Assembly (NCBI GenBank): GCA_041397625.1
Contig: JAWKWH010000005.1
Location: forward strand, 86,271-150,270
Origin: Rhizobiaceae bacterium
GTDB taxonomy: Bacteria; Pseudomonadota; Alphaproteobacteria; Rhizobiales; Rhizobiaceae
Reading direction: 5' to 3'
Length of the DNA stretch: 64,000 nt
The notes beneath the pieces are model-generated. The model was given only the letters and a program-made list of their open reading frames with translations. It searched no databases and was not told where the DNA came from. Shown here in pieces: positions 26,553 through 48,933 of this stretch (the first letter of the stretch is position 1; each line of letters begins with the position of its first letter). A program made the position numbers and the translations under genes.

Positions 26553-26564
26553 ATTGTTGACAAT
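26553..26564 (+). promoter_or_regulatory. Operator O1 ATTGTTGACAAT (candidate site of the GntR/FCD regulator at 38767-39558)
   Basis: Perfect copy of a 12-bp palindrome also found at 33900, 39570 and 39606. Intergenic, 233 nt upstream of the ABC substrate-binding-protein gene. Confidence 0.7.
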
Positions 26565-26602
26565 CCGCTTGCCATTTGGGGCGGATTGGTGTAGGTTCCA
26601 AA

Positions 26603-26615
26603 TTGAGTAGAAGCG
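26603..26615 (+). promoter_or_regulatory. Conserved leader block TTGAGTAGAAGCG
   Basis: Identical 13-mer occurs on the minus strand at 33862-33874, in both cases downstream of the operator. Function unknown (promoter element or leader RNA). Confidence 0.35.
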
Positions 26616-26797
26616 AACTTAGCGCTGACGGCGCTCTGGTAATTGCTCTCCGTTGTCCTGAGAACCGGGAGAGAGGGGACAATGCTTCGCTCACCAAACC
26701 CAAAACATATGTCATTCGTCGGCATGGGCTCGATCGCGAGCAGGTATGTGCGCCGCACTTATCCTGCGCTTTCGGCTGTGCCGGGAAATGGAGGAGA

Positions 26798-27784
26798 ATG
26801 ATGAAACGCTTGCTGACCGCGGCCGTCGCCGCGTTGACGATCACCGCGCCGGCTGCCGCTGCCGACCAGGTGAAATTCCAGCTCGACTGGCTGCCGGGTG
26901 GCGAGAAGGCGCCCATCTTCGTTTGCATGGAACGCGGTTTCTGCGCCGACGCCGGCCTTGAAGTGACGATTGAATCGGGCCGTGGTTCATCGGAAGCGCT
27001 GACCAAGCTGGCGACCGGCATTTCCGATATCGGCATTTCGGGCATCGGCGCGCTGATGGCCGCCCGCGCCACCGAAAACATCGCGGTAACCGCTGTGATG
27101 TCCGTCTTCAACAAGGGCCCGCACGCCTTCTTCACCATCGAGGGCAACGGAATTTCCAAGTTCGCGGACGTGGGCGGCCGCAGCATCGCCACTTCGCCGT
27201 TCACCTCGTCCAACATCTACCTGCCGCTGGTGCTGGCCGACAACGGCTTGTCGGAAGACAGCATCAAGGTCACCAAGGCCGATCCCGGCGCTCTCGGGCC
27301 GATGCTGGTAACCGGGCAGGTCGACGCGATCATCGCGTGGGTTACCGACGTGTCGCGCTACACCGGCCAGGCCACCGAGGCCGGCAAGGAACTGATCGTG
27401 CTGCCGTGGTCGGAAGCCGGTCTCGACATGTATTCGACGTCCGTCGTTGCCTCCGACAAGTTCCTGACCGAGCGCCCCGACGTGGCTCGCCGCTTCGTGG
27501 CCGCGTTCATGAAATCGATCGAATACTGCCGCGAGAACCCCGATGACGCCGCTCAGGCGGTGGTCGACGCGGTGCCGGAAATCGACGCCAAGAGTGCGCG
27601 CGGATCGCTTGCCGACGCGTTGGTGTTGATGTTCAACGAAGTGACGGAGCAATATCCGCTAGGTAGCTTCGATCCGGAGCGGCTGGCCGCCACCTGGAAG
27701 CGCGTCGCCGCCGCCCAGGAGCTCGACGAGAGCGCCGTCAACCCGGAAGACGTCGTCGATCGCAGCTTCATGCCGGGATCCTGA
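26798..27784 (+). CDS. ABC transporter substrate-binding protein, NMT1/THI5-like (nitrate/sulfonate/pyrimidine-type fold)
   Basis: ORF 26576..27784 trimmed to ATG 26798 (GGAGGAG upstream). Signal peptide [25 protein letters not shown]1/THI5-like fold ([14 protein letters not shown]). Confidence 0.85.
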
Positions 27785-27786
27785 AC

Positions 27787-28578
27787 ATGACTGCCGCAAC
27801 CCGAAACCAGACCGCGATCAGATTTGCCGGCGCCGGCATCACTTTCGACACGGCGTCCGGTCCCCTGGTTGCGCTGAAGGACGTTGATCTTTCCATCGAC
27901 GATCATGAGTTCGTTGCGATCCTCGGACCATCGGGTTGTGGCAAGTCCACGCTGATGCGGCTCGTCGCCGGGCTCCTGAGACCCACCGAGGGCACCGTGG
28001 AGGTGAACGGCCAGAAAGTCGTCCAGCCGCGCGACAATATCGGCATCGTGTTCCAGAAGCCGACCTTGCTGCCGTGGGCAACGCTGGAAGACAACGTCGT
28101 TTTCCCGATGAAGCACAAATACGGCAAGGTAACCGCCAGGCAGCGCCAGCGCGCCCACGAACTGCTCGACATGGTCGGGCTGGCAAAGCTGGAGAAAAGG
28201 CGCCCCGGCCGTCTTTCAGGGGGCATGCAACAGCGCGTGGGCATTGCGCGCGCGCTGTTGCACGATCCGGACATCCTGCTCATGGACGAACCGTTTTCGG
28301 CGCTGGACGCGCTGACGCGCGAGGAAATGGGTTTCGAACTGCTGAACATATGGCAGGAGACGCGCAAGACCGTGATGTTCATCACCCACTCGATCGCCGA
28401 GGCAGTACTGCTGTCCGACCGGGTGATCGTCATGAGCCGCGGGCCGGGAGCGAAAGTTGCCGAGGATCTCAAGGTGCCGGCCGGTCGGCCGCGACACGGC
28501 GAATCCATGCGCTCTTCCGACATGCAGGACCTTACCGCCCATCTGCGTGACATCCTCATGAAAAAGGAGGCGGCTTGA
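27787..28578 (+). CDS. ABC transporter ATPase (NitT/TauT family)
   Basis: Walker [10 protein letters not shown], signature [14 protein letters not shown], Walker B ILLMDEP. Confidence 0.9.
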
Positions 28579-29363
28579 CCATGGCCAGCGCTATCGATCG
28601 CATGAACCGGATCCCCGGCGGATTGCCGGCACTGACCTTCCTCATCATCCTCGTCATCTGGGAGGTCTCAACCAGGGTCCTCCAGATACCGTCCTTCCTG
28701 CTGCCCGCACCTTCGCGTATCGTCGAGGGTTTCGACGGTATAACCGTGGCGCGCTGGGCCGGCCATGTGTGGTCAACCTTCCGCGTGGCCATGACGGGCT
28801 ATCTGACGGCCATCGCGGTCTCGCTGCCGCTGGCGATCATGCTTACGCGTTACAAGACCGTGTCGAGCAGCATCTATCCGCTGCTGGTCGTCATCCAGTC
28901 GACACCGATCGTCGCGGTGGCGCCGATCATCGTCGTCACGCTCGGTTCGGGTGATCTGTCGCGGGTGCTGATCACCTTCCTGATTTCCTTCTTCCCGCTG
29001 GTCGTGTCGATGACCACCGGCCTGAAGGCAACGCCTGAAGAACTAATCGAGCTGTCGCACAGCCTCAGGGCGCCGCTGATCCGCGAGTTCACGCAGATCC
29101 GCATCCCCTTCGCCATTCCCTACATCTTCTCGGGCCTGAAAATCTCGGTGACGCTGTCGGTGATCGGCGCGGTGGTGGCGGAGTTCGTCGCCGCGGAAAA
29201 AGGCATCGGCTACTTCATCCAGTTCTCGACATCCCTGTTCAAGATCCCGCAGGCATGGGCAGGCCTCGCGATATTGGTGTTGATGTCGCTGACATTGTTC
29301 CAGCTCATTTCCTTCATCCAGCGCCGCTTCTTCCCCTGGTCGTTGCCGCGCGAAACGAAGTGA
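28575..29363 (+). CDS. ABC transporter permease (NitT/TauT family)
   Basis: Overlaps the ATPase stop (TTGA; start is TTG). Six-TM permease of the SsuC/TauC type. Confidence 0.88.
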
Positions 29364-29392
29364 ACGGCTTTGTTATAGCCGATGCATAGGAA

Positions 29393-29419
29393 ATCCTCAC
29401 CGCTAAAGCCGGTGAGGAT
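29393..29419 (+). terminator. 10-bp perfect stem-loop after the ABC operon (weak terminator candidate)
   Basis: ATCCTCACCG-ctaaagc-CGGTGAGGAT, 30 nt after the permease stop. No proper T-tract follows. Confidence 0.3.
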
Positions 29420-29688
29420 ATTCGCGTCAAAGATGGGGCGATCGCCGGGACCGGCTCCATCGAGCGCGCCGGGCGGGAAGGTGGTCGATACTTCCGGTGT
29501 GATGGTTACCCCGGTTTGGCCAATACCACCACCATCTTTCCGATGTTTCTCAAGGCGATGCCGGCGGGCATGGACAGGCCGCCTACACCACCACCGGATG
29601 CGGCCGGTTCCAATCTCCTGCTGACACGGGCTCGGCGTCGATATTCAGATAGTATCAATTCCGGGATTTGGTCGCCCGGCGGCGAAAC

Positions 29689-30276
29689 CTATTCGCTGCG
29701 CACGCCCTGCCAGCGATGCGCCAGCCCGACATCGAGGTCGAAGAGATCGAGCACGCGGCCGATCGTGTGGTCGACCATGTCGTCGAGGCTTTGCGGTTTT
29801 GCGTAGAAGGCGGGAACCGGCGGGTAGATGATGGCGCCGGCCTCGGTGACGGCGGTCATGTTGCGCAGATGGCCGAGATGTAATGGAGTTTCGCGCAACA
29901 AAAGCACCAGGCGCCGGCGTTCCTTCAGCGTCACATCGGCGGCGCGCGACAACAGGTTCGACGTGGTGCCGGTGGCGATCTCGGCCAGCGATTTGACCGA
30001 ACATGGCGCGACGATCATGCCGAGCGTCTTGTAGCTGCCCGAGGCGCAGGCCGCGCCGATATCCTTGTTGGAGTGGCTGACGGTGGCAAGCGCCTCCAGA
30101 TCCCTCAGCCCGAAATCGGTCTCCGCCGCCATCGTCACCCGTGCCGCATTGGAAACGACCAGATGCGTTTCGACGCCGATCTCGCGCAGCACTTCCAGCG
30201 TCCGCTTGCCATAGACGACACCGGACGCGCCGGAAATACCGACGATGATCCTTGGTTTCGCCTTGCTGTTGCTCAC
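29689..30276 (-). CDS. ubiX: Flavin prenyltransferase UbiX (prFMN synthase)
   Basis: Full-length UbiX/Pad1 family (IIVGISGASG, MIVAPCSVKSLAEIA). Confidence 0.92.
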   Translation of the reverse strand: MSNSKAKPRIIVGISGASGVVYGKRTLEVLREIGVETHLVVSNAARVTMAAETDFGLRDLEALATVSHSNKDIGAACASGSYKTLGMIVAPCSVKSLAEIATGTTSNLLSRAADVTLKERRRLVLLLRETPLHLGHLRNMTAVTEAGAIIYPPVPAFYAKPQSLDDMVDHTIGRVLDLFDLDVGLAHRWQGVRSE

Positions 30277-30282
30277 AATCGT

Positions 30283-31671
30283 CTAGCCTTGGCCTAGGCT
30301 CTTCAAGATCGCGGCCGCGCGTTCGCGGGCCGCGGCGCCGATCTCGGCGCGCACACCATGGAAATTCGGTCCGCGCGTAGCGTCAAGCCCCATGCGCGAG
30401 GTGGTTCCGATACCGCTTGCCGACGGGTCGAGCGCATTGCCGGGCAACCCCTCGATGATCACCACGTCGCGATGCGGCTGGAAGTGGGTGGACAGCGCCC
30501 ACAGCACTTCGGAATCATTGGTGATGTCGACATCCGAGTCGACGACAACCACGTTCTTCAGATATTGGTCCCAGCCGAGCAGGCCGAGCATGACCTGGCG
30601 GCCCTCGCCCTCGCGCGACTGGTCAATGGCGATGTAGGCGTGGAAATGCGTGCCCGACGATGGGTAGTGTACGGCGGTAACCGACGGAAAACGCGCCTTC
30701 AATTTCTCCACCACCTCGGCCTCGCGCGGAATGCGGCCGAGGTTGAGATGTTCGGCCGAGTTGCCGCCGGCGACGCTGACCAGGATGGCCTTGTCGCGGC
30801 GCATGACCGTCTCGACAGTGAACAGGTTATTGGTCGAACGGTCCGACGAATAGCCGGTGAACTCGCCGAACGGACCTTCTTCGACATGGGCCTCGTGGTC
30901 GATGACGCCTTCGAGCACGATCTCCGCATGGGCAGGGACGCGAATCCCGTATTTGGGCGTGCGCACGACCTCCAGCGCTCCGCCCATCAGCCCGCCGGCG
31001 ACCACGCGTTCGTCCTCGCCGAAGGCGAGCCGGGCCGAGGCGGCAATCATGAATTTCGGATGCCCGCCGATCACCATGGCGACCGGCATCGGTCTGCCCT
31101 TCTCCTTCGACATGTTGAGCAGCCGCCACAGATGGCCGCGCGAATGCAGGGAGGTGGCAAGCGTACTGGGCGAATTGATCATCGCCCGATGGTAGGAAAG
31201 GTTGCCGGCGCCGGTCTCCGGATGTTCGCCGATGATGATGCCGCTGGTGATGTATTTGGCGCGGTCGGTCTCGAAATGTTTGACCATCGGCAGGCGCGCC
31301 AGATCGATATCGGAGCCGCCCATAACCTGCTCGGTGATGGGTGCGGCGGAGACCTCTTTCGGCTCGACGCCGCGGCGGGCATGCTGCTGATAGGCCTCGT
31401 GCAGACGCGCCTCGTCGACGCCGAACATCGATGCGATGCGACGACGCGAACCGAAGATGTTGCAGATGACTTCCGTGTCCAGGCCGGCGACATTGCGCAG
31501 ATGCAGAATCGGGTGACGGCCCTTGGCGGCCAGGTTCCAGATCAGCGCGGTGGCATCCTGGTCGTCGGAGACCTCGGCCTCGATATCGAGGACATCGTCG
31601 GGATTGGCGGCGCGATAGTCGGCAAGAAAGCGCCTCACATCCTGGGTGTGGAACTGCTGGCTGTCCGACAT
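30283..31671 (-). CDS. UbiD-family prFMN-dependent (de)carboxylase, substrate unknown
   Basis: ORF 30283..31776 trimmed to ATG 31671 (GGGAGG 9 nt upstream). UbiD motifs (GNLSYHR, EGPFGEFTGY). Stop is 6 nt before ubiX. Confidence 0.88.
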   Translation of the reverse strand: MSDSQQFHTQDVRRFLADYRAANPDDVLDIEAEVSDDQDATALIWNLAAKGRHPILHLRNVAGLDTEVICNIFGSRRRIASMFGVDEARLHEAYQQHARRGVEPKEVSAAPITEQVMGGSDIDLARLPMVKHFETDRAKYITSGIIIGEHPETGAGNLSYHRAMINSPSTLATSLHSRGHLWRLLNMSKEKGRPMPVAMVIGGHPKFMIAASARLAFGEDERVVAGGLMGGALEVVRTPKYGIRVPAHAEIVLEGVIDHEAHVEEGPFGEFTGYSSDRSTNNLFTVETVMRRDKAILVSVAGGNSAEHLNLGRIPREAEVVEKLKARFPSVTAVHYPSSGTHFHAYIAIDQSREGEGRQVMLGLLGWDQYLKNVVVVDSDVDITNDSEVLWALSTHFQPHRDVVIIEGLPGNALDPSASGIGTTSRMGLDATRGPNFHGVRAEIGAAARERAAAILKSLGQG

Positions 31672-31729
31672 CGCGTCAATCCTCCCGAAAAAGGCGGCGG
31701 TCGCATATGCGGCCGCCGCGCGTGGTCTG

Positions 31730-32674
31730 TCAGGCGTCCACCTTGTGCTTGCCGGTAGCGCGGTCGACGCCGGCATAGCTGTCCTTCAGGCGCGCTTCGG
31801 CGTCGCGCTTGTCGCGCGGCGGCGGCGTCGGGTCGATGCCGACCAGCCTGGCGATGTTGTTGCCGAGATAGCCTTCCAGATCGTCCTCCGACAGGTTCAT
31901 GCCCTGCGGCGGCTCATGGCAGAGCACCTCCAGTTCGCGCAGCCACATGCCCGGATCGTTCGGCGGGCTGTCGGTGCCGAAGACAATTCTGTCCTTCGGC
32001 AATTGCTGGGCGAACTCGACGATGCGCGACTGGAAGCACCAGCCGCTCTCGCAATAGACATTGGGCGTGTCCATTGCCATCCAGAAGGCCTCGAACGAGT
32101 AATTGCCGCCGGTCTGGATGCCGAAATGGCCGATGATGAAGTTGACCATCGGGAACTCGCGGATGATCGGGTAGAACATCGTCGGGATGGTGTAGGGCCC
32201 GTCGCCGGTGTGGATCAGCACCACGACGCCGAGCTCGGCGCATTTCTTCATCGCCGGCCGCAGCCACTCCAGCGCCCGGTCCGGCCGGTAGCCGTGCATG
32301 TTGGCGTGCAGCTTGAGCATCTTGAAGCCATATTCCTTGACGTGGAATTCGAGCTCCGCGGCACCGTTCTCAGGCCCCCAACGCGGATTGTAGTTGAAGT
32401 TGCCGATGAACCGGTCGGGATATTTCTGGCACAGCTCGGCGCAGTAGGACATGTAGTCGCGGATACCCTCGCGGCCCATGCGGTTGCCGTCGCGATAGCC
32501 GGTATTGCCGGGCGGCGGCTGGATGAAGCCCATGTCGATGCGGCGCGGCTTGCCGTTGATCATGTAAGGGCCGTCCATCAGTTTCAGCATGCGCTCGCCG
32601 GTGAACGGCTCGCCGGTATGGCGCCACGCCTCGTCGACCAGGTTGGTCGGATGCAGGTGGGTATCGATGATCAT
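31730..32674 (-). CDS. Amidohydrolase_2 (ACMSD/LigW/IDCase-type) metal-dependent enzyme, paralog A
   Basis: N-terminal DTHLH (HxH), HTGDGP, GHFG and FGTDSPP motifs consistent with a metal-binding TIM-barrel hydrolase/decarboxylase. Confidence 0.8.
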   Translation of the reverse strand: MIIDTHLHPTNLVDEAWRHTGEPFTGERMLKLMDGPYMINGKPRRIDMGFIQPPPGNTGYRDGNRMGREGIRDYMSYCAELCQKYPDRFIGNFNYNPRWGPENGAAELEFHVKEYGFKMLKLHANMHGYRPDRALEWLRPAMKKCAELGVVVLIHTGDGPYTIPTMFYPIIREFPMVNFIIGHFGIQTGGNYSFEAFWMAMDTPNVYCESGWCFQSRIVEFAQQLPKDRIVFGTDSPPNDPGMWLRELEVLCHEPPQGMNLSEDDLEGYLGNNIARLVGIDPTPPPRDKRDAEARLKDSYAGVDRATGKHKVDA

Positions 32675-32714
32675 TGTCGTCTCCGTTGGAAAGTGTTTCG
32701 GTCAGGGGTGCCGA

Positions 32715-33641
32715 TCAAGCGGTTTCCAGCTCGATACCGTGCTGGCGCAGGCGGTCTTCGGCTTCCTTGACGGTGGCGGGCGGAGGGGTCGTGTCCAAGC
32801 CGATCATGCGGGCAACATTGTTGCCGAGGTAATCCTCGAGCGTATCCTCGTCGAGGTTCAGACCCTGCGGCGGCTCGTGGCAGAGCACCTCCAGCAAGTT
32901 GATCCACATACCCGGCTCGTTGGGTGGTGTGTCGGTACCGAACAGGATCTTGTGCGGCGGCAGTTCCTTGGCGAACTCGACGATGCGCGACTGCAGGCAC
33001 CAACCGCTCTCGGCGTAGACATTCGGCTCGTCCATCGCCATCTGGAACGGCTCGAACGTGTAGACGCCGCCGGTCTGGACGCCAAAATGCGCGAGGATGA
33101 AATTGACCTCCGGGAATTCGCGGATGATCGGCACGAATTCGGTGGGGATCGAATAGGGACCGTCGCCCGTATGAACCTTCACCATCACGCCGAGATCGGC
33201 GCATACGCGCATGGCCGGGCGCAGCCAGTCGAGCGCGCGGTCGGGACGGTAGGCATGCATGTTGGCCTGCAACTGCACCATCTTGAAATCGAACTCCTTG
33301 ACATAGCGTTCGATTTCCTCGGCTCCGTTCCCGGTGCCGTAACGCGGGTTGTAGACGAAGCAGCCGATGAAGCGGTCCGGATGCTCGGTGACCATCTTCT
33401 CGGTATAGGCCATGTATTCGCGGATGGCCGCCTTGCCTTCCTTCTCGTGGATGCCGTCGGTGTAGATGGTGTTGCCCTGCGGCGGCTGGATGAAAGCCAT
33501 GTCCACGCGGCGCGGCTTGCCGTTCACGTAGAAGGGGCCGTCCATCATCTTCAGCAGGCGCTCGCCGGTGAACGGCTCGCCATCATGGCGCCAGGCGAGG
33601 TCGACCAGATCGGTCGGATAGCAGCTAATATCAATGATCAT
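32715..33641 (-). CDS. Amidohydrolase_2 paralog B lacking the HxH metal motif
   Basis: ORF 32715..33797 trimmed to ATG 33641 (GGAGAA upstream). Roughly two-thirds identical to paralog A by eye, but the N-terminus is DISCY instead of DTHLH. HTGDGP, AHFG and FGTDTPP are retained. Confidence 0.78.
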   Translation of the reverse strand: MIIDISCYPTDLVDLAWRHDGEPFTGERLLKMMDGPFYVNGKPRRVDMAFIQPPQGNTIYTDGIHEKEGKAAIREYMAYTEKMVTEHPDRFIGCFVYNPRYGTGNGAEEIERYVKEFDFKMVQLQANMHAYRPDRALDWLRPAMRVCADLGVMVKVHTGDGPYSIPTEFVPIIREFPEVNFILAHFGVQTGGVYTFEPFQMAMDEPNVYAESGWCLQSRIVEFAKELPPHKILFGTDTPPNEPGMWINLLEVLCHEPPQGLNLDEDTLEDYLGNNVARMIGLDTTPPPATVKEAEDRLRQHGIELETA

Positions 33642-33861
33642 GGTGTTTCTCCTTGGATGCGTAGCAGGGGCTTGCCGGGGTTCGCGGAGGCGCGCTGACG
33701 AAGCCGGCCGGTTGCCGGCCCGTCGCGAACGGAATGGCCCGTTCTGCCAGCAGCATCCGCAAACGCCTTCGGCCGTCACCGACCGGGCGATGGTCAATTT
33801 CTCTTAGGGAAAAGTTGGTCACCGCAGCCCTCGAGATCAGAGTTCATCGAGCAATTGGCTG

Positions 33862-33874
33862 CGCTTCTACTCAA
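33862..33874 (-). promoter_or_regulatory. Conserved leader block TTGAGTAGAAGCG (minus strand)
   Basis: Identical to 26603-26615. Lies 25 nt downstream of operator O2 in the direction of transcription. Confidence 0.35.
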
Positions 33875-33899
33875 GCTGATTAAAGCGCAATCCTCCCGG

Positions 33900-33911
33900 A
33901 TTGTCAACAAT
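33900..33911 (-). promoter_or_regulatory. Operator O2 ATTGTTGACAAT (read on minus strand)
   Basis: Perfect 12-bp palindrome within GGATTGTCAACAATCC. 258 nt upstream of the paralog B start, just downstream of the cobW-like gene terminator. Confidence 0.7.
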
Positions 33912-33959
33912 CCTGTCCGGCCGTTTGCCAAGAAAACGATGGCATCGCGGTCGCGCGAC

Positions 33960-33996
33960 AAAAAAAGAAAGCCCGTACCGTCTGTCCGGTACGGGC
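33960..33996 (-). terminator. Rho-independent terminator after the COG0523 gene
   Basis: Minus strand reads GCCCGTACCG-gacaga-CGGTACGGGC followed by TTTCTTTTTTT. Lies 42 nt after the stop at 34038. Confidence 0.85.
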
Positions 33997-34037
33997 TGCG
34001 AGGTGGCGACCTCATCCGGTCGCGGCGGGAGATGGCG

Positions 34038-35084
34038 TTATTGCTCGACAAGGCATTCGCGCAGCCGGGCCTCGATTCCCCTGCGGTCGAGGCGACGGCC
34101 GATGAACACGATCTTCGACCTGCGTTCCTCGTCCTGCCAGGGGTGGTCCGGGCGCAGGTCGACCAGCTTGTGCACGGCCTGCAAAACGTAAAACCGGTCG
34201 TCGCCTGCAACCGACAGGATGCCCTTGGTGCGGAAGATGTCCTCGCCCTTCTCGTCGAGATAGTCGTGCAGGAAAGCCTGCAGCCTGCCGAGATCGAACG
34301 GCGCCTGCATGGTGAAGCTGTGCGAGGTCACCGTCTCGTCGTGCACATGGCCGGCGTGATGCGCGTGGTCGTGATGGTCCTGGCCGTCATCGTCCATGTC
34401 GATCTGCAGGATCTCGGCGCGCTCGCGAACATAGGAGGGCTGGAAACCGTTGACGTTGAGGATGCGGCTAAGATCGACGACACCGTAGCTGGAGCGCATG
34501 ATCTCGGCAGTCTGGTTCAGGCCGCGCAGTTCCTTTTCAAGAACGTCAAGATCGCCCTCGCTGGCAAGATCGACCTTGTTGACGATAATCCGGTCGGCGG
34601 CGACGATCTGGTCCACCGCCTGGTTGTCCTTGCCGTCGAGCACCGGATCGTAGAGGTGCTGGTCGACATGCTTGGCGTCGACCAGGGTAACGATCGCGTC
34701 GAGATTGACCTCGCCTGCCACTTCCTGATCGACGAAGAAGGCGGTCGCCACCGGCGTCGGATCCGCCAGTCCGGAGGTTTCGACAATAATGTGGTCGAAC
34801 TTGTCCTTCTGCGCGATCAGCTTCCTCATCACGTCGATCAGGTCGTTGCGCACGTCGACGAAGCAGCAGATGCAGCCATTCTGCATCTGGAAGATCTCCT
34901 CGTCGGAGGCGAGCACCAGATCGCTGTCGACGTCGATCTCGCCGACCTCGTTCTCGATCACCGCGATGCGGTAACCATGGCGTTCGGTAAGGATGTGGTT
35001 GAGTAGCGTCGTCTTGCCCGAACCGAGGAACCCGGTCAGGATCGTGATCGGAATCTTGCCGTCCTTGATCTCATGTATCTGCAT
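34038..35084 (-). CDS. COG0523 (CobW/ZigA-like) metallochaperone GTPase
   Basis: Walker A GFLGSGKTTLL, CxCC motif GCICCF, His-rich stretch DHHDHAHHAGHVHDE. Start ATG overlaps the stop of the Mo-subunit gene (TGATG). Confidence 0.88.
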   Translation of the reverse strand: MQIHEIKDGKIPITILTGFLGSGKTTLLNHILTERHGYRIAVIENEVGEIDVDSDLVLASDEEIFQMQNGCICCFVDVRNDLIDVMRKLIAQKDKFDHIIVETSGLADPTPVATAFFVDQEVAGEVNLDAIVTLVDAKHVDQHLYDPVLDGKDNQAVDQIVAADRIIVNKVDLASEGDLDVLEKELRGLNQTAEIMRSSYGVVDLSRILNVNGFQPSYVRERAEILQIDMDDDGQDHHDHAHHAGHVHDETVTSHSFTMQAPFDLGRLQAFLHDYLDEKGEDIFRTKGILSVAGDDRFYVLQAVHKLVDLRPDHPWQDEERRSKIVFIGRRLDRRGIEARLRECLVEQ

Positions 35085-37387
35085 CAGACCGCCTCCTTCT
35101 GCCTCAGCCCCTCGAGGATGTCCTCGGGCGTTATCGGATAATGGTGGAACCGGACGCCGATGGCGTCGTGGATGGCGTTGGCGATGGCCGGCCCGATGGC
35201 GATGATCGGATCCTCGCCGACGCCCTTGGCGCCCCAGGGACCGCCGGGATCGGGCGCCGCCTCGATAATGACCGTCCTTATGTCGGGCATGTCCATCGAC
35301 AGCGGCATCTTGTAGTCCACCAGGCCGGCATTGAGGGGGCGGCCGGTCTTCATGTCGACGATGTAGTCCTCGGTCAGCGTGTGGCCGATGCCCTGCTGGA
35401 TGCCACCCTCGATCTGTCCCTCGGCGGCAATCGGATGGATCACCCGGCCGACATCGTGCACGGGAACGACCCTGACGACTTCGACGATGCCCGTACCCGT
35501 ATCGACGGCGACCTCGACGAAATGGGCGGCAAACGAATAGGACTTGGTCGGCTCATAAGTGCCGTTGCCGATGATGTTGGCGGCCGGAACGCCACGCGAC
35601 GGCCCCATCGCCTCTGCGACCGTCATCGACCGGCCCGCGTCGCCCACGACGAAGATAACCCCCTCGTCGATGTCCAGCCTCTCGGCAGCGGCCTGCATCT
35701 TCTCGGCGGCGCGGTCGAGCACTTGCGCCCGCGCCTTTTCCGCCGCGAGCTTTGTCGCGCTTCCGACCAGATAAGTGGTGTGGCTGGCAAATGCGCCGAT
35801 GTCCCACGGCACGACATCGGTATCGCCATGGATGACACCGACGGTCTCGAAGGGAACACCCAGCGCCTCGGCGGCGATCTGGGCCAGCGCGGTGTGCGCC
35901 CCGGTGCCGAGGCCGGCAGCGCCGGTGAGCAGGGTGACCGATCCGTCCTCATTGACCTTGATCGTGGCATTGCCCTGCTCTTTGATACCGGGATAGGCCG
36001 ACGATCCGTGCATCTCGCAGCCTATGCCATAGCCCCGCAGCACCGCCGGCTTGCCCGGAACGCTGCGATCCGAGCCACGCAGCCTCGTCCATTCGAACTC
36101 GTCGAGGCCGCGCTTGATACAGGCTTCCAGGCCATGGCCGACGACCGGATGACCGGATGGGGCGACATCGCCCTCGCGCACGGCGTTCTTCAGTTTCAGT
36201 TCGGCGGGGTCCATGCCGAGCCGCTCGGCCGCCTCGTCGAGTTGGATGTCGATCGGGAAGTAGGTCTGCACCACTCCGTAACCACGGAAGGCGCCGGAGA
36301 TCGGCGTATTGGTATAGACCGCGCGGCCGTCGATACGGACGTTCTCGCAGCGATAGAGCGAGACCGCCGAATTAGTGCCGACGATCGTGACGCCGGGGCT
36401 GTGCGATCCGTAGGCGCCCGAATCGTAGACGATGCGCATGTCACGCGCGGTAATCGTGCCGTCTTTCCTGAAGCCCTGCTTGAGCGAGAGCTTGAAGGGA
36501 TGGCGTGAGCGCCCGGCAACGAAGGTTTCATGTCGGGTGAATTCCATGCGCACCGGCCGCCTCGTCTCCTTCGCCAGAAGCGCGCACAGGAATTCGTGCT
36601 GGAAGCAGTCCTGCTTGGCGCCAAAGCCGCCGCCCATGTGATCGACGAGCACGCGCACCTTGGTAAGCGGCAGCCCGAGCACCTCGGCAAGGATGCCGCG
36701 CACCATGAAACTGGTCTGGGTCGAGGTCCAGAAGGTCAGCTTGTTGGAGCCGTCCCAATCGGCCATGCAGACATTGGGCTCCATGTAGGCCGGGATCGGA
36801 CGGCCGCCTGAAAACTCTCCTTCCAGGATCAGGTCCGCCTCGGCAAATCCGCGCGCTAGATCGCCGCGCTCGACAATAACGGGATCGAGCACGAGATTGC
36901 CGCCCGGGCCGACATTATGGATCAGCGGCGCGCCCGGCTTCTGCGCTTCCTCAGGATCGAAGACGGCGGGCAGCGCCTCGTATTCGACCTCGATCAGGTC
37001 GAGCGCCTCGTCGGCGATTTCCTCGCTGATCGCGGCAATGGCGGCCACGCCCTCGCCCCAGAAGCGCACCCGGTCGTCGAGGATGTACTGGTCTTTGGTG
37101 CACGACGCCGAGCGTGGATGCGGCGAACCGTAGTGCAGCACGCGCGGCACGTCCTTGTGGGTCAGCACCGCCTTGACGCCCGGATGGGCGAGCGCCCTGG
37201 AAACGTCGATACGCTTGATTTTCGCGTGCGCGATCTCGGCGCGCTTGATCTTGCCGAACAACAGTCCGGGAAGCGTAATGTCGCTTGTGTAAAGCCCTTC
37301 GCCGGTGACCTTTTCCAGCACGTCGTCGCGCTTGACGCTCTTGCCGACGGTACGGAATTGGCGGTCGAATTTCACATGTTCGGTCAT
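35084..37387 (-). CDS. Molybdenum hydroxylase large (molybdopterin-binding) subunit, xanthine dehydrogenase/aldehyde oxidase family, substrate unknown
   Basis: ORF trimmed to ATG 37387 (ATGA overlap with the small subunit). HMGGGFGAKQD, ISGAFRGYG and AKGVGEDPII (active-site Glu) motifs. Confidence 0.88.
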   Translation of the reverse strand: MTEHVKFDRQFRTVGKSVKRDDVLEKVTGEGLYTSDITLPGLLFGKIKRAEIAHAKIKRIDVSRALAHPGVKAVLTHKDVPRVLHYGSPHPRSASCTKDQYILDDRVRFWGEGVAAIAAISEEIADEALDLIEVEYEALPAVFDPEEAQKPGAPLIHNVGPGGNLVLDPVIVERGDLARGFAEADLILEGEFSGGRPIPAYMEPNVCMADWDGSNKLTFWTSTQTSFMVRGILAEVLGLPLTKVRVLVDHMGGGFGAKQDCFQHEFLCALLAKETRRPVRMEFTRHETFVAGRSRHPFKLSLKQGFRKDGTITARDMRIVYDSGAYGSHSPGVTIVGTNSAVSLYRCENVRIDGRAVYTNTPISGAFRGYGVVQTYFPIDIQLDEAAERLGMDPAELKLKNAVREGDVAPSGHPVVGHGLEACIKRGLDEFEWTRLRGSDRSVPGKPAVLRGYGIGCEMHGSSAYPGIKEQGNATIKVNEDGSVTLLTGAAGLGTGAHTALAQIAAEALGVPFETVGVIHGDTDVVPWDIGAFASHTTYLVGSATKLAAEKARAQVLDRAAEKMQAAAERLDIDEGVIFVVGDAGRSMTVAEAMGPSRGVPAANIIGNGTYEPTKSYSFAAHFVEVAVDTGTGIVEVVRVVPVHDVGRVIHPIAAEGQIEGGIQQGIGHTLTEDYIVDMKTGRPLNAGLVDYKMPLSMDMPDIRTVIIEAAPDPGGPWGAKGVGEDPIIAIGPAIANAIHDAIGVRFHHYPITPEDILEGLRQKEAV

Positions 37388-37866
37388 GACCTTGTCGCCT
37401 CGATGTCGCTGGCAGCGCCTTTGACGGCGTCGAAAATCTTGGTGTAGCCGGTGCACCGGCAGATATTGCCCGACAGGCCGAAGCGGATTTCCGCGTCCGA
37501 CGGGTTCGGATTCTCGCGCAGCAACTGGTTGGCCATCATCAGTATCCCGGGCGTGCAAAAGCCGCACTGGGACGCACCGTGCTTCATGAAATTGTCCTGC
37601 AGCGGATGCAGGTCGTCGACCGACGCCTGAAGGCCCTCGACGGTTTCGACGCTCGCACCATCGGCTTCCACCGCCAGCATCAGGCAGGCATTGATCGGCC
37701 TGCCGTCGACGATGACGGTGCAGGCGCCGCAGTCGCCGACGTCGCAGCCCTTCTTGGTGCCGGTCAGGCCGACTTCCTCGCGCAGCGTGTCGAGCAGGGA
37801 ACGGTAGTCCTCGACGACGACTTCGCGCTCTTCACTGTTGATCGTCATATTGATGATGCGTTTCAT
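37384..37866 (-). CDS. Molybdenum hydroxylase small subunit (two 2Fe-2S clusters)
   Basis: ORF trimmed to ATG 37866 (ATGA overlap with the FAD subunit; alternative ATG at 37848). CDVGDCGACTV, CGFCTPG and CRCTGY motifs. Confidence 0.9.
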   Translation of the reverse strand: MKRIINMTINSEEREVVVEDYRSLLDTLREEVGLTGTKKGCDVGDCGACTVIVDGRPINACLMLAVEADGASVETVEGLQASVDDLHPLQDNFMKHGASQCGFCTPGILMMANQLLRENPNPSDAEIRFGLSGNICRCTGYTKIFDAVKGAASDIEATRS

Positions 37867-38726
37867 GCTGTCTGCTCCAGGGCTTGCAGGATGGCGCGTT
37901 CGGTGAGGACGCCAACCATGCGGCGCCGGTAGTCGGCGGAACTGCGTACATTGCTGATCGGCGTGCATTCCTGCATCGCCTTTGCCGCGGCGGCACCGAT
38001 CGCGTCGGGGCTCAGGTCGGACCCCTTGAGTAGTGCCTCGGCTTCCGAGGCGCGCAGCACGGTCGGGCCGACAGCGCCAAGCGCGACACGGATGTCGCTG
38101 CAACGGCCGCCGTCACGGTCAAGACTGACCGCTACGCCGACCGTTGCCAGCTCCATCGCCTTGCGCCTTCCGTGCTTTATATAGGCGCGGGCGCTGTCGG
38201 GCCTCGGAGCGGGCACCGACAGGCCGACCGCGATCTCTCCCGGCGACAGCACCGTGCGGCCGGGTCCTGTGAAAAATTCGGCCAGCGGCACCGTGCGGTT
38301 GCCGTCCGGATTGTAAATCTCGATTGCCGCTTCATCGGCGATCAGCGGTGGAATGGTGTCGGCCGACGGCGAAGCACGGCAGATATTGCCGATCACCGTG
38401 GCGCGGTTGCGCACCTGGATCGAGCCGAGTTCGCTCAGCGCCGCGGCGAAGTTCGGATAATGCCGGCGCACCTCCGCGGAAGTCTCCAACTCGCGCGCAG
38501 TGGTTAGCGCGCCGAATCTCAGCCCATCACTGTCATCGTAGGAGAAACCGTCGAGATTAGGGATCTTCTTGATATTGATGACGTGGCGGACGGTACGCAG
38601 CCGTTCGCGAATCTCGACCAGCAGATCGGTACCGCCGGCAAAGAAAAACGCCTCGTCGCCCAGTTCCTTCTTGAGGGCCGACGCCGCGGCCAGCGTCGTC
38701 GGTTCATGATATGCAAAGCGCCTCAT
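37863..38726 (-). CDS. Molybdenum hydroxylase medium (FAD-binding, CoxM-like) subunit
   Basis: FAD_binding_5 / CO-dehydrogenase flavoprotein domains (FFAGGTDLL, RNRATVIGNI). Confidence 0.88.
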   Translation of the reverse strand: MRRFAYHEPTTLAAASALKKELGDEAFFFAGGTDLLVEIRERLRTVRHVINIKKIPNLDGFSYDDSDGLRFGALTTARELETSAEVRRHYPNFAAALSELGSIQVRNRATVIGNICRASPSADTIPPLIADEAAIEIYNPDGNRTVPLAEFFTGPGRTVLSPGEIAVGLSVPAPRPDSARAYIKHGRRKAMELATVGVAVSLDRDGGRCSDIRVALGAVGPTVLRASEAEALLKGSDLSPDAIGAAAAKAMQECTPISNVRSSADYRRRMVGVLTERAILQALEQTA

Positions 38727-38766
38727 GCAAAGCCTTCCTTTCTTCCGCCCGCAAGCGGGCTCCCGC

Positions 38767-39558
38767 CTAGTCGGGGGATTGAAGACCGCGCCTTGCCTTT
38801 TGAGCGCTGCTACCGGTTCTCCGATTTCTTGACGATTTCTCTTTTCCCGCAGGACGCGCGACTTCCTCCGCCTTGCGCGCGCTTTCCTGCATCATGGTCG
38901 TTTCGAGTTCGCACAGCAGACCGGAATTCAGCCGTGCCGCCCTTTCGCCGTCGCCACGTTCCAGCGCCTCGATCGTTGCGAAATGGGTCGGCGTGCCGTG
39001 GAACTTCGACGTGCCGCCGACCCGCTCGGGCGAGAGCAACGGCTGGCAGTTCATCAGGTCTTCAAGGAAGCGGGTCAGCGGTGCGTTGCCGGCAAGCCGC
39101 GACATCGCCAGGTGGAAACTGCGCGACAGGCGATAGGCATCTTCGACGCGCCCCTTTTCATAGGCGCGATCCTCGGCTTCGACGATATCGCGCAGTTCTC
39201 CAAGCCCGGCCTCGTCGATCGTGGCGGCGAGCTTGCGCAACGCCATCTCCTCGACCGCCCGGCGCGCCTCGAACATTTGGCCGGCCTCGTCGGCATCAGG
39301 CTGGATAATCAGCGCGCCGCGGTTCTGGCTGAGTTCCACAAGCCCCATGCCGGCGAGCCGCACAAGCGCGTTGCGGATAGCCATGCGGCCGGCGCCGGTC
39401 GCTTCCGACAACTCGCGTTCGATAAGCCTGTCGCCGGCCTTCAGGCGAAACGCGTTGACCGCATCGACCACGCTATTGATCACACGCCCCTCGGCCTCAC
39501 GTCCGCTGCGACGTGTCCCGTTGGGCAGATCAAGAGCTGGAAACACGGAAGGCTTCAT
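38767..39558 (-). CDS. GntR-family regulator with FCD (FadR/VanR-type) effector domain
   Basis: wHTH (ERELSEATGAGRMAIRNALVRL) plus an all-helical FCD domain. ATG 39558 (GTG 39561 possible). 40 nt upstream of the FAD-subunit gene. Confidence 0.85.
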   Translation of the reverse strand: MKPSVFPALDLPNGTRRSGREAEGRVINSVVDAVNAFRLKAGDRLIERELSEATGAGRMAIRNALVRLAGMGLVELSQNRGALIIQPDADEAGQMFEARRAVEEMALRKLAATIDEAGLGELRDIVEAEDRAYEKGRVEDAYRLSRSFHLAMSRLAGNAPLTRFLEDLMNCQPLLSPERVGGTSKFHGTPTHFATIEALERGDGERAARLNSGLLCELETTMMQESARKAEEVARPAGKEKSSRNRRTGSSAQKARRGLQSPD

Positions 39559-39569
39559 CACGGCCTCGG

Positions 39570-39581
39570 ATTGTTGACAAT
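39570..39581. promoter_or_regulatory. Operator O3 ATTGTTGACAAT
   Basis: Perfect palindrome 8-11 nt upstream of the GntR/FCD start codon, next to the GAGG ribosome-binding site. Confidence 0.7.
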
Positions 39582-39605
39582 TCGGAGTGTACCAGCATCC
39601 GCGAG

Positions 39606-39617
39606 ATTGTCAACAAT
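39606..39617. promoter_or_regulatory. Operator O4 ATTGTCAACAAT
   Basis: Perfect palindrome 24 bp from O3 in the opposite centre orientation. Lies in the pyrF-gntR intergenic gap. Confidence 0.7.
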
Positions 39618-39808: not shown

Positions 39809-40726
39809 CTAGTTCGCAGCGAGGTTCGGCGCGTCCCTTCCCTTCGTGGCGCCGGGCCACGCAAGCAGCTCTTTGTAGTGGGCCATTCTGTCCAGCAGAA
39901 TGGCGCGATACTCTTCCAGGTCGATGGTGCGGTCGCTGATGCGCGTCATGCCGCGCGATACCGGCACCAGAAGATCGCCGGCATGCGTGCCCTTCAATGC
40001 ATGAATGGTCGCGACTTCACCGCCCTGGGCGCCCATCCCCGGCGCCAGAATGATCGTGTTCGGCAATTGTCGACGGAGCCTCCGCGCTTCGCCCGCCGCA
40101 GTCGCGCCGACGACGGCGCCTATGGCACTGAGTCCACCTCCGCCATTGGCCGATTGTGCGATCATGTAGATCAGCTCGGCCAACCGGTCAGATACAGAGT
40201 GATTGCCCGCCATCTGGTCTTGTAGCCACGCCGCACCCGGATTGGACGTGCGGCAAAGAACCAGAATCCCCTTGCCGAACTGCCGGGCGGCATCGACGAA
40301 TGGCTCCAGCGTGTCGGGTCCCATCAGGGGGTTGACCGTCATGCAATCGACTTCGAAATCGCCACTACCGCCGGCCGACGCCGGTACCAGATAGGCGCGC
40401 GCATAGGCAGCCGACGTCGCGTCGATGTCACCGCGCTTGGCGTCGAGAATTACACCGATGCCGGCAGAGCGTGCCTGTCTTATCCCCTGGGAAAGGGCAG
40501 TCAGACCGGCCAGTCCGCAGGCTTCGAAATAGGCCGCCTGAAACTTCACGAACCCCACACGACCTTCGATCAGCGGAAGCAGAAAGTCGACAAACCGCGC
40601 GATCCACTGAGGATCGTCGCCAAATGCATGCGGCAGGTCAGGGCGATTGGGATCGATGCCGATGGTCAGCGGGCCGAATTCGCTGGCGTTTTGAGCGACC
40701 AGGTCCTGCCAGGGCATTCGGTTCAT
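39809..40726 (-). CDS. pyrF: Orotidine 5'-phosphate decarboxylase, long type 2 form
   Basis: 305 aa. DAKRGDI active-site motif and type-2 architecture. Confidence 0.85.
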   Translation of the reverse strand: MNRMPWQDLVAQNASEFGPLTIGIDPNRPDLPHAFGDDPQWIARFVDFLLPLIEGRVGFVKFQAAYFEACGLAGLTALSQGIRQARSAGIGVILDAKRGDIDATSAAYARAYLVPASAGGSGDFEVDCMTVNPLMGPDTLEPFVDAARQFGKGILVLCRTSNPGAAWLQDQMAGNHSVSDRLAELIYMIAQSANGGGGLSAIGAVVGATAAGEARRLRRQLPNTIILAPGMGAQGGEVATIHALKGTHAGDLLVPVSRGMTRISDRTIDLEEYRAILLDRMAHYKELLAWPGATKGRDAPNLAAN

Positions 40727-40746
40727 CGGCTTGTTCTCCGCTGTGC

Positions 40747-41082
40747 TCAGTTCGATCCGTCGGTTCTGTGCGTATCCGCCAGCCGGCGCGCAGCCTCGTT
40801 CATGGCGTCCAGCTTCGCCTCCGCCGAGCCGCCGGCAAAGGCATTGCCCAGAAGCGTGACCATGCCGGTTATGTGATTGAACTCTTCGGCCGCTTCCTCG
40901 ACCGTCAGCGGTTGGTCGTCATAGGATTCGACGAAACGCTGGGCCGCATAGGAAATGAGAAGCAGGGCCGCCGAATTGTCGGGTTCCTTGGCAATTCGCG
41001 CACGCGCGGCGCGCGCGCAGGCATCATAGGCGCGGACGCCGCCTCCCGCGTCACTAATGGCCTTTACCAGCGAATCAAACAT
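40747..41082 (-). CDS. Hypothetical acidic helical protein (111 aa) between pyrE and pyrF
   Basis: ORF 40747..41091, ATG at 41082. Gaps of 18-20 nt to both neighbours. No recognisable motif. Confidence 0.55.
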   Translation of the reverse strand: MFDSLVKAISDAGGGVRAYDACARAARARIAKEPDNSAALLLISYAAQRFVESYDDQPLTVEEAAEEFNHITGMVTLLGNAFAGGSAEAKLDAMNEAARRLADTHRTDGSN

Positions 41083-41100
41083 AACGCGCACTCCTTGGAA

Positions 41101-41796
41101 TCATCGTGCCAACTCGGATATTCCGCCGTGATTTGCGGACCATGCGACCGGGCCGTTCAGAAACAGCTCCACCTCGGCGATCGTGGCGGTCGGAAAACGG
41201 TTCTCGTCCTTGCAAACCTTCAAAATGTCCCACCAGGTCGCGAGGTAATGCAGCCGCATGCCGGCCGCGGCGAGCTTCTCCGGCGTGTCCGGAAAGATGT
41301 CGTAATAGAAGACGGCGAACGTGTCGGTCACGCGCGCGCCGGTGCGCGCGATCGCCTCGGCAAATTTGAGTTTGCTGCCGCCGTCGGTCGTCAGATCCTC
41401 GACCAGCAGGACGCGCGCGCCTTCCGCCAGGGCGCCCTCGATCTGCGCATCGCGGCCGAACCCCTTCGGCTTCTTGCGAACGTATTGCATGGGCAACCCG
41501 AGCCGGTCCGCCAGCCATGCGGCAAACGGAATACCCGCGGTCTCGCCGCCGGCGACGGCATCGAACTGCTCGAAACCGACATTGCGGAAGATGATCGAGG
41601 CGCCGAAGTCCATCAACGCGGAGCGGATGCGCGGATAGGAAATGAGTTTGCGGCAATCGATATAGACAGGACTTGCGAGACCGGAGGTGAATGTGAACGG
41701 CTGATCGGCCCGGAAATGGACGGCGTTTATCTCCAACAGCATTTTCGCCACCGTCTCGGAAATCACTGCGCGATCTGGAAAAGTGTTTGAAAACAT
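41101..41796 (-). CDS. pyrE: Orotate phosphoribosyltransferase
   Basis: ORF trimmed to ATG 41796 (AGGAAG upstream). Alphaproteobacterial-type PyrE ([18 protein letters not shown] motif [13 protein letters not shown]). Confidence 0.9.
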
Positions 41797-41858
41797 GGCT
41801 GCTTCCTGCTGGTTGACCGTCACCCTCTCGCTAACAACATTGCCGCGGACTAGCCAGA

Positions 41859-42899
41859 CTACTCCCCGATATTCCAGTGGATAGGAAACCCCGGGTCGAA
41901 CACCGTGACCGGCCCCTCCGCCGTCTCGATCTTCTCGGGGAACGAAATCGGCGCATCGAGCCGGGTGAGCGTGACGCGGGCTTCATTCGCCGGCAGGCGG
42001 TAGAAGGCCGGTCCGTTCAGCGAGGCGAAGGCTTCCAGTCGGTCGAGCGCGCCTTCCTCCTCAAAAACGTGGGCCAGCAACGGCATGGTGTTGATCGCCG
42101 TGAAAATGCCCGCACATCCGCAGGCACATTCCTTCAGAGGGTCAAGATGCGGAGCCGAGTCGGTGCCGAGGAAGAAGCGCGTGTCGTCCGAAGTCGCTGC
42201 CTCGCGCAGGGCGAGGCGATGGTGCTCGCGCTTGGCAACCGGCAGGCAGTAATAGTGCGGCCGGATACCGCCGACCAGGATGGCATTGCGGTTGATGATG
42301 AGATGATGCGTGGTGATGGTGGCCGCCTGGTTGTGGTCCAGCGAGCGGACATAATCGACGCCATTCTTCGTGGTCACATGTTCCATGACAACGCGCATTT
42401 CGGGCAGCCGGCGCCGCAGCGGATCGAGTACGCGTTCGATGAACACGGCCTCGCGGTCGAATATGTCGATGTCCGGATCGGTCACTTCGCCGTGCACGCA
42501 GAGCGGCATGCCGATTTCCGCCATCTTCTCCAGCACCGGCATGGCCTTCTCGATGTCGCGCACGCCGCTCTGGGAGTTTGTGGTGGCGCCGGCCGGATAG
42601 TGCTTGACGGCGGTGACCAAACCGTCGCGGAAGCCGGCCTCGACGTCGGCCGGCTCCGTGGCCTCGGTGAGATAGAGGGTCATCAGCGGCGTGAAGTCAT
42701 GGCCTGCCGGCAGCGCCTCGAGGATGCGTTTCCGGTAGGCCGCCGCATCGCTCGTCGTTGCCACAGGCGGCACCAGGTTGGGCATGACGATGGCGCGGGC
42801 GAAATCGGCCGAACTGTATGGCAGCACCGCCTTCAACATCGCTCCGTCGCGCAGATGCAGGTGCCAGTCGTCCGGTCGTCTGATCGTCAGTGTGGTCAT
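41859..42899 (-). CDS. pyrC: Dihydroorotase (E. coli-type class II)
   Basis: Near end-to-end resemblance to E. coli PyrC ([34 protein letters not shown]). Confidence 0.92.
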
Positions 42900-47751: not shown

Positions 47752-47832
47752 CCGCTCCCGTATCGCGTCTCGACAAGATCAGGTTCCCGCGCGGACATCG
47801 GCCCGAAAGCCGCGCCCGCGCGAATGCATCAC

Positions 47833-48843: not shown

Positions 48844-48905
48844 GGGTTCCACCTCCCTTATGTTTCAGACTGCTGCGAAGCCAAGCCTATGGAACGGCAT
48901 ACCGG

Positions 48906-48917
48906 CTGTCAACAAAT
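48906..48917. promoter_or_regulatory. Degenerate operator-like site CTGTCAACAAAT
   Basis: 9-bp core TGTCAACAA shared with O1-O4. Lies in the dctP/XRE divergent promoter. A TTGACAAT half-site also occurs at 48989-48996. Confidence 0.3.
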
Positions 48918-48919
48918 AT

Positions 48920-48933
48920 TCTCAAAATTGAGA
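48920..48933. promoter_or_regulatory. 6-2-6 inverted repeat TCTCAA-AA-TTGAGA in an AT-rich divergent promoter
   Basis: Perfect arms. Located between dctP and the XRE regulator gene. Candidate operator. Confidence 0.35.

Follow-up and report, generated by a model that had tools for sequence, protein, structure and literature searches.

A putative GntR/FCD operator at the promoters of a predicted lumazine/pterin catabolic cluster in alphaproteobacteria

Introduction

The bacterial route for the breakdown of lumazine and pterins was worked out only in 2025, in Cupriavidus sp. LA-1, and its regulation was left open by its authors (Doi, Maeda and Takaya 2025, PMC12391406). Here we analyze a stretch of 64,000 nucleotides from a Rhizobiaceae bacterium (assembly GCA_041397625.1, contig JAWKWH010000005.1, positions 86,271 to 150,270 of the forward strand; hereafter "the window"), in which genes matching this pathway are accompanied by a regulator with GntR and FCD domains and by four copies of a 12-bp motif, ATTGT-N2-ACAAT, that we propose as the operator of this regulator.

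In cluster I of LA-1, a three-subunit molybdenum (Mo) dehydrogenase oxidises lumazine to 6,7-dihydroxylumazine, a two-subunit Amidohydro_2 enzyme isomerises 6,7-dihydroxylumazine to xanthine-8-carboxylate, and a UbiD that depends on prenylated flavin mononucleotide decarboxylates the latter to xanthine (PMC12391406). The beta subunit of the isomerase has His6, His8 and Asp235, the alpha subunit is without the two histidines, and the two subunits are 65% identical; the GTPase LA1_0143, which always accompanies the beta subunit, helps to load zinc (PMC12391406). Inducers of the cluster are lumazine, 7-hydroxylumazine and 7-hydroxypterin; its regulators are explicitly described as uncharacterised, and Rhizobiales and Rhodobacterales carry it as well (PMC12391406). 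Two further descriptions bear on the present locus, namely the half-site consensus TKGT/ACMA of the FadR subfamily of GntR regulators (Suvorova 2015, as quoted in PMC6608401) and the NMT1 RNA motif (RF03054), a xanthine/urate OFF switch that acts on translation (Yu and Breaker 2020, PMC7373994).

The window holds the same enzyme set as the LA-1 cluster, comprising a Mo dehydrogenase, a two-subunit isomerase, a CobW-like GTPase and UbiD/UbiX, but its transporter is an NMT1-type ABC system where LA-1 has a nucleobase permease. Also unlike the window, the Cupriavidus cluster used for comparison, that of Cupriavidus sp. EM10, has neither a homologue of the GntR/FCD regulator nor the motif.

Results

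Four copies of a 12-bp motif precede three transcription units

A sequence-only reading of the window had reported a 12-bp word in front of three transcription units and taken it as the mark of a GntR/FCD regulon. Its four occurrences were recovered with ATTGTCAACAAT in a both-strand search of the 64-kb window, each as an exact match; their role as operator copies is predicted:

26553-26564, + strand: operator copy in front of the NMT1-type ABC transporter operon; TTGACA directed toward the genes
33900-33911, - strand: operator copy in the isomerase/decarboxylase promoter; TTGACA directed toward the genes
39606-39617, - strand: distal operator copy of the regulator/lumazine dehydrogenase operon; reads ATTGTTGACAAT on the gene strand and contains the -35 hexamer TTGACA
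39570-39581, - strand: proximal operator copy, at about +1, 4 bp past the -10 box and ending 11 bp before the start codon at 39558

By chance, ATTGTCAACAAT would be expected 0.01 times in the window, and four copies were reached by none of 100 dinucleotide shuffles. Searches of the window that allowed one to three mismatches, a free centre or the 16-mer GGATTGTYRACAATCC returned no credible extra site, only unsupported near-matches in coding regions. Once the gene starts had been corrected, all four copies were still intergenic, as first described. The spacing of the regulator-proximal pair (24 bp between the copies, 36 bp centre to centre), the extension of the match to GGATTGTYRACAATCC-like 16-mers and the shared orientation of the copies at 26553 and 33900 with respect to the genes that follow them were likewise reproduced, and a strong terminator-like hairpin (33997-33970) was found where a cobW terminator had been placed, just before the 33900 copy. 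Pfam searches bore out the gene calls that accompanied the word: an ABC operon of the NMT1 type, a pair of Amidohydro_2 genes together with UbiD and UbiX, and a GntR/FCD gene heading a Mo-hydroxylase-cobW operon.

The description of the word as a perfect palindrome has to be dropped. The reverse complement of ATTGTCAACAAT is ATTGTTGACAAT, so that symmetry is limited to the 5-bp arms ATTGT/ACAAT around an asymmetric CA/TG centre; on the + strand, the centre reads ...TCAAC... in two copies and ...TTGAC... in the other two, and the opposite centre orientation mentioned in the same reading was already at odds with perfect symmetry. As a search pattern, the operator is written ATTGTNNACAAT. The arms TTGT/ACAA are compatible with the FadR-subfamily half-site consensus. 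Three features had gone unnoticed in the sequence-only reading, namely the TTGACA inside the motif, the lumazine/pterin pathway, and the xanthine-riboswitch-like leaders on two of the three units.

The regulator and its promoter

Two features define the head of the regulator operon:

38767-39558, - strand: GntR/FCD (FadR-subfamily) regulator of 263 amino acids, candidate repressor, first gene of its operon (Pfam GntR and FCD)
39586-39613, - strand: predicted promoter of sigma-70 type for the regulator operon; TTGACA-16-TACACT, TG-extended (promoter scan, consensus match alone)

The GntR domain of the regulator (PF00392, residues 27-85) was matched at E 2.4e-10 and 40.3 bits against a cut-off of 27, and its FCD domain (PF07729, residues 95-211) at E 6.1e-17 and 62.6 bits against a cut-off of 24.3. 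The predicted recognition region does not vary among the homologues. In the predicted promoter, the -10 box TACACT occupies 39591-39586, and the -35 hexamer lies within the distal operator copy.

In the public annotation of the source metagenome-assembled genome, the regulator starts 25 codons later and has 238 amino acids (P0001; window 39483-39558). We prefer the 263-residue start because its ATG at 39558 is preceded by a Shine-Dalgarno-like GAGG 5 nt upstream and homologue P0002 aligns over the full 263 residues. Beyond the FCD domain, the protein has a basic C-terminal tail, RRTGSSAQKARRGLQSPD (residues ~245-263; window 38767-38825), which is kept in the window protein, P0002, P0003, P0004 and P0006 and is absent from the homologues of Paracoccaceae and Acidiphilium.

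The putative operator is conserved with the regulator in alphaproteobacteria

The regulator family comprises 19 proteins at E <= 1e-20, all 19 of which have both the GntR and the FCD domain. Through exact-protein look-ups, one scan of species-representative genomes and a plasmid collection, we assembled a comparison set of 21 non-redundant alphaproteobacterial loci (580,206 bp; regulators 41-73% identical), the organisms covered including Acidiphilium, Paracoccus, Mameliella, Sedimentitalea, Roseibium, Ponticoccus and Sinorhizobium (pSymB). In these loci, perfect-arm ATTGT-NN-ACAAT occurs 41 times where 0.086 copies are expected, and every one of the 41 lies in a promoter of the regulator, the isomerase or the NMT1 transporter operon.

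The core TTGTTGACAA is present in the regulator's own promoter in all 21 loci, at a fixed place and with TTGACA always pointing to the gene, and in most of the related regulator promoters a TAnnnT-like -10 hexamer follows the embedded TTGACA by 16-18 bp. In the window and 13 other loci, a second copy follows downstream at a start-to-start distance of 35-40 bp, immediately ahead of the regulator's start codon. The centre of these proximal copies is CA, TG, TA or CG, and their arms are invariant save for one arm mismatch on the Paracoccus plasmid pNSM5b; that the centres vary while the arms hold suits a two-fold symmetric protein site better than a promoter element. A copy before the isomerase operon is shared by the window and seven loci (L001, L003, L007, L012, L013, L014 and L016), where it lies 27-29 nt ahead of a leader RNA. 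L003 has a further copy before its NMT1 operon, and in L020 a copy with one mismatch stands before another riboswitch-like leader. The flanks of the 12-mer are unrelated between genera, and its retention amid unrelated flanks identifies it as a phylogenetic footprint.

The motif also follows the regulator in its absence. In Cupriavidus sp. EM10, where the enzymes of the cluster are present, neither a homologue of this regulator nor the motif was found; motif and regulator thus go together. Neighbouring regulators (LysR, a second GntR) vary among the loci, and the GntR/FCD protein is the sole regulator common to all 21.

Three further observations concern the family. A distant regulator clade (41% identity) stands beside a classic XdhAB-XdhC set and a BMP-type ABC transporter in locus L026, which has an intergenic TTTGTCAACAAA at 9770-9781; this points to a broader group of GntR regulators for purines and pteridines, whose related operators may serve xanthine dehydrogenase regulons. 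In locus L003, the transporter and isomerase promoters (8908-8941 and 15518-15551) each hold a perfect copy together with a degenerate copy exactly 22 bp off. The same locus has a second GntR/FCD paralogue (8999-9841) directly upstream of the regulator.

A predicted repressor of three units and its alternatives

From what was observed, namely the motif with its placement and conservation and the families of the genes, we infer how the regulator would bind, with what sign it would act and what would release it. We consider it quite probable that ATTGT-N2-ACAAT is the operator of the GntR/FCD protein encoded at 38767-39558 and that this protein is a dimeric repressor of the three units; the comparative genomics of the 21 loci backs the regulon that had been proposed for the window. 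Each copy would be bound by a dimer that contacts the two 5-bp arms. In the regulator's own promoter, the distal copy overlaps the -35 hexamer and the proximal copy would cover the transcription start, and copies in these two positions suggest that the regulator represses itself together with the lumazine-dehydrogenase-like Mo hydroxylase and the CobW-like chaperone. The single copy over the -35 box would repress the isomerase/UbiD/UbiX operon, and the copy at or just upstream of the transporter promoter would control the NMT1-type ABC system. A compound of the pathway may release the repressor, the candidates being lumazine, 7-hydroxylumazine, 6,7-dihydroxylumazine and xanthine-8-carboxylate.

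Several observations weigh against this interpretation, or against its extension to all three units everywhere. The roseobacter-type loci L008-L012 and L021 retain the riboswitch-like leader but have a single copy at the regulator, the one at -35, and the isomerase promoters of L008-L011 and L021 are of a plain TTGACC/TTGACT type without arms. In Sinorhizobium meliloti, the regulator has one copy, overlapping -10/+1, and there is none before the isomerase operon; Paracoccus pNSM5b is likewise without a copy before that operon. Given the copies missing in roseobacters, S. meliloti and pNSM5b, the three-unit regulon of the window is the fullest version of the arrangement and not a universal one. 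Within the window, the promoter scan called no promoter at the 26553 and 33900 sites. At the 33900 site, a looser script gave a candidate -10 box, TTTAAT (33884-33879), 17 bp after TTGACA, with the leader RNA beginning a few bases later. At the 26553 site, no good -10 box was seen 16-18 bp after the embedded TTGACA, and reading by eye gave an alternative transporter promoter, TTGCCA (26569-26574)/17 bp/TAGGTT (26592-26597). The 26553 copy either provides the -35 box of a weak promoter or sits just upstream of TTGCCA-17-TAGGTT, and in the latter case its position may be around -45 of that other promoter, outside the classic places for repression.

This transporter site is also what favours the view that the GntR/FCD protein binds the motif but activates some promoters, as FadR does at fabA. 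The 26553 site is 13 bp farther from its leader RNA than the 33900 site is from its own, it has no -10 box at the expected 16-18 bp, and its centre would fall near -45 if TTGCCA-17-TAGGTT is the promoter. Activation is nevertheless unlikely, as the same motif before the NMT1 operon of L003 contains the -35 box of a canonical promoter, TTGACA-18-TATGCT, and the placement at -35 and +1 in the other two units is repressive. A different protein might instead read the motif, such as a LysR-type neighbour or a global purine or nitrogen regulator: LysR genes adjoin the cluster in L001, L005/L009, L022 and pNSM5b, and L003 has its second GntR paralogue. We regard this as quite improbable, since no LysR gene stands next to the regulator on its upstream side in the window, L006 or L007, and that of the Acidiphilium locus lies at the far end; the GntR/FCD protein is the one regulator found in every locus, always with the motif in its promoter. 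The fit of the half-sites to the FadR-subfamily consensus and the missing motif in Cupriavidus sp. EM10, which is without this regulator, point the same way.

That the motif is simply a strong promoter element, a -35 TTGACA with favoured flanks read by RNA polymerase and no dedicated regulator, would account for the sigma-70 consensus hexamer that lies inside it, toward the gene, at the 26553, 33900 and 39606 sites and at every distal site of the related loci. It would not account for the 39570 site and most proximal copies, which are inverted or have TA/CG centres that destroy TTGACA and yet keep both arms perfect, nor for the left arm ATTGT, which lies upstream of the hexamer and outside the -35 consensus. 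Roseobacter-type isomerase promoters have TTGACC or TTGACT without the arms, so that a promoter there needs no palindrome, and the promoter-element explanation appears very unlikely. That the motif belongs to a dispersed repeat, the outcome named in advance as fatal to the regulon, or forms one end of a mobile element has in its favour only its multiplicity in the window. The motif is 12-16 bp long with unrelated flanks, and its 41 perfect-arm copies in 580 kb are confined to three kinds of pathway promoter. The complete 141,151-bp plasmid pNSM5b contains two sites with at least 9 of 10 arm matches, both in the regulator's promoter and nowhere else, which is not the distribution of a dispersed repeat; we give this origin next to no weight.

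The pathway genes match the lumazine/pterin cluster

The genes of the three units are arranged as follows:

35084-38726, - strand: three-subunit Mo hydroxylase of the XOR family, candidate lumazine dehydrogenase (Pfam, NCBIfam, corrected starts, conserved synteny)
37863-38726, - strand: FAD subunit of the Mo hydroxylase
37384-37866, - strand: 2Fe-2S subunit of the Mo hydroxylase
35084-37387, - strand: Mo-cofactor subunit of the Mo hydroxylase
34038-35084, - strand: CobW/ZigA-like GTPase, candidate zinc chaperone of the isomerase and equivalent of LA1_0143, last gene of the operon
33970-33997, - strand: intrinsic-terminator-like hairpin ending the regulator/lumazine dehydrogenase/cobW operon (11-bp stem with 8 GC pairs, then a T run)
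29689-33641, - strand: isomerase/decarboxylase operon (Pfam)
32715-33641, - strand: DHLI alpha-like Amidohydro_2 protein
31730-32674, - strand: DHLI beta-like Amidohydro_2 protein
30283-31671, - strand: UbiD (start corrected)
29689-30276, - strand: UbiX
26799-29363, + strand: ABC transporter operon (Pfam)
start ~26799, + strand: NMT1/THI5-like binding protein (signal peptide and start assigned)
27787-28578, + strand: ABC ATPase
28575-29363, + strand: ABC permease

These genes match the lumazine/pterin catabolic cluster, with the substrate specificity of the Mo hydroxylase being predicted. The beta-like isomerase subunit begins MIIDTHLHPT and has H6, H8 and D235, while the alpha-like subunit begins MIIDISCYPT and is without the two histidines; the pair shares the His6/His8/Asp235 pattern of the LA-1 isomerase, and its mutual identity is 67% against 65% in LA-1. 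With Cupriavidus sp. EM10, found by tblastn of plasmids, as a proxy for the LA-1 proteins, the identities to the window are 86% for beta, 72% for alpha, 67% for the Mo subunit, 66% for UbiD, 59% for UbiX, 56% for the FAD subunit, 55% for the GTPase and 53% for the 2Fe-2S subunit. Across phyla, conservation within the beta subunit family is 68-92%, and the CobW-like GTPase co-occurs with the isomerase genes in related loci. When the isomerase subunits are compared with those of related loci, they prove conserved to an unusual degree from genus to genus: beta is 90-97% and alpha 84-94% identical, leaving aside a divergent Paracoccus kondratievae copy (75%), but the adjoining regulator is only 41-73% identical.

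No pterin deaminase, or cytosine-deaminase-like substitute, adjoins the cluster in the 64-kb window, in contrast to L001, L003, L005, L022 and pNSM5b, where a pterin deaminase is next to it. The organism may use lumazines but not pterins, or its deaminase gene may lie elsewhere.

Two of the three units begin with xanthine-riboswitch-like leaders

Between operator and first structural gene, the transporter and isomerase units each have a leader and a short upstream open reading frame (ORF):

26600-26653, + strand: leader resembling the xanthine (NMT1) riboswitch, with P2 formed locally (RF03054, 20.9 bits, E 0.021, under the gathering threshold of 36)
26682-26801, + strand: putative upstream ORF (39 codons) behind a GA-rich stretch that resembles a Shine-Dalgarno sequence, with a stop codon overlapping the start of NMT1 (ATGATG)
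33844-33877, - strand: xanthine (NMT1) riboswitch-like leader, short variant without a local P2 (RF03054, 22 bits, E 0.0058, under the gathering threshold of 36)
33631-33822, - strand: putative upstream ORF of 63 codons that starts with GTG and separates the leader from the isomerase alpha gene, with a stop codon overlapping the start codon of alpha

At the gathering threshold, RF03054 gave no match in the window or in seven related loci. The orthologous leader of S. meliloti pSymB (L022 25384-25453) scores 43.4 bits, above that threshold. The leader core GAGUAGAAGCG...AAUUGCUC (in RNA form GAGUAGAAGCG...AUUGCUC) was found in 12 loci besides the window; it precedes the isomerase operon in the window and 11 loci, and it also stands before an unidentified gene in L020 and before the NMT1 operon of the window. 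The P1 pairs are kept in all eight aligned leaders, with one compensatory change (in S. meliloti), and the P2 hairpins differ in sequence between loci on inspection; covariation in P2 rests on that inspection, as MAFFT with RNAalifold recovered P1 and could not align the variable P2. Compared with the described RF03054 class, the window leaders share the core and the predicted P1 helix, and one of them precedes an NMT1 gene as in the original description; they differ in scoring below the gathering threshold, in that the leader at 33844-33877 is without a local P2, and in that each is followed by a short upstream ORF.

The minimum-energy fold of the short leader is a long hairpin that reaches the start codon. 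In this fold (window 33815-33874; L008 15619-15688), CGCAGCC of the aptamer region is base-paired to the GGCUGCG that directly precedes the following start codon; an inner hairpin, CUCGA/UCGAG in the window and CUCACC/GGUGAG in roseobacters, shares its CUC with P1. The modelled fold might act as an expression platform or represent a novel aptamer topology. An ORF occupies the equivalent place, right after GGCUGCG, in L001 and L008-L012, and the overlap of the ORF stops with the main start codons suggests translational coupling.

Xanthine is the end product of the pathway and RF03054 is a class of OFF switches, which makes product feedback a natural reading of these leaders. We propose, tentatively and at slightly less than even chances, a two-tier control in alphaproteobacteria: the GntR/FCD repressor would sense a substrate or intermediate, and a divergent xanthine riboswitch would, via the coupled upstream ORF, shut the pathway at xanthine excess. 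The literature that we searched held no paper joining a xanthine riboswitch to lumazine breakdown.

A neighbouring gene cluster

On the minus strand, a second cluster (window 39809-49955) looks like a reductive orotate/pyrimidine-type catabolic or salvage route. Its genes encode TRAP DctPQM, PyrK-like and PyrD-like dihydroorotate dehydrogenase subunits, an M20 amidohydrolase, a dihydroorotase-like amidohydrolase, a phosphoribosyltransferase and a protein resembling orotidine monophosphate decarboxylase, with a divergent XRE-type regulator at 48999-49955. No copy of ATTGT-N2-ACAAT lies in this cluster, and other genomes show no linkage between it and the lumazine genes.

Discussion

For the alphaproteobacterial version of the lumazine/pterin route, the analysis offers a testable model that consists of a candidate repressor, an exact operator and three target promoters. 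S. meliloti pSymB carries the same cluster and operator, which makes tests easy in a model organism, and genomes could be searched with the operator to predict genes that respond to lumazine; it might also be the start of a pteridine biosensor. The presence of operators and xanthine-riboswitch-like leaders on the same transcripts hints at substrate induction combined with product feedback. Should two-tier control prove true, it would explain in physiological terms why this riboswitch class has its puzzling OFF polarity, the association of the class with NMT1 and amidohydrolase genes would in part be reassigned from purine oxidation to pteridine breakdown, and the short leader without a local P2 would be a structurally new aptamer variant.

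In the literature on bacterial regulation that we searched, the operator word ATTGT-YR-ACAAT returned only unrelated primers and constructs, and a search for GntR together with lumazine returned nothing relevant. The closest known parallels are the auto-regulated repressors of the FadR subfamily, PdhR, LldR, GntR, DgoR and HypR. The regulator of the window has the same architecture of a GntR winged helix and an FCD domain, its putative operator is the same kind of inverted repeat, with half-sites fitting TKGT/ACMA, and the copies lie in the same position, over -35 and +1 of the regulator's own promoter; the regulator is likewise the first gene of the catabolic operon that it would control. It differs from characterised members of the subfamily in its low similarity to them, with a best PDB match of E 1e-11 and a best NCBIfam match far under the cut-off, and in its pathway, which here is pteridine catabolism. 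The auto-repressor layout is ordinary in kind; what is new is the proposed assignment of an uncharacterised regulator clade, its exact operator and its target promoters to this pathway.

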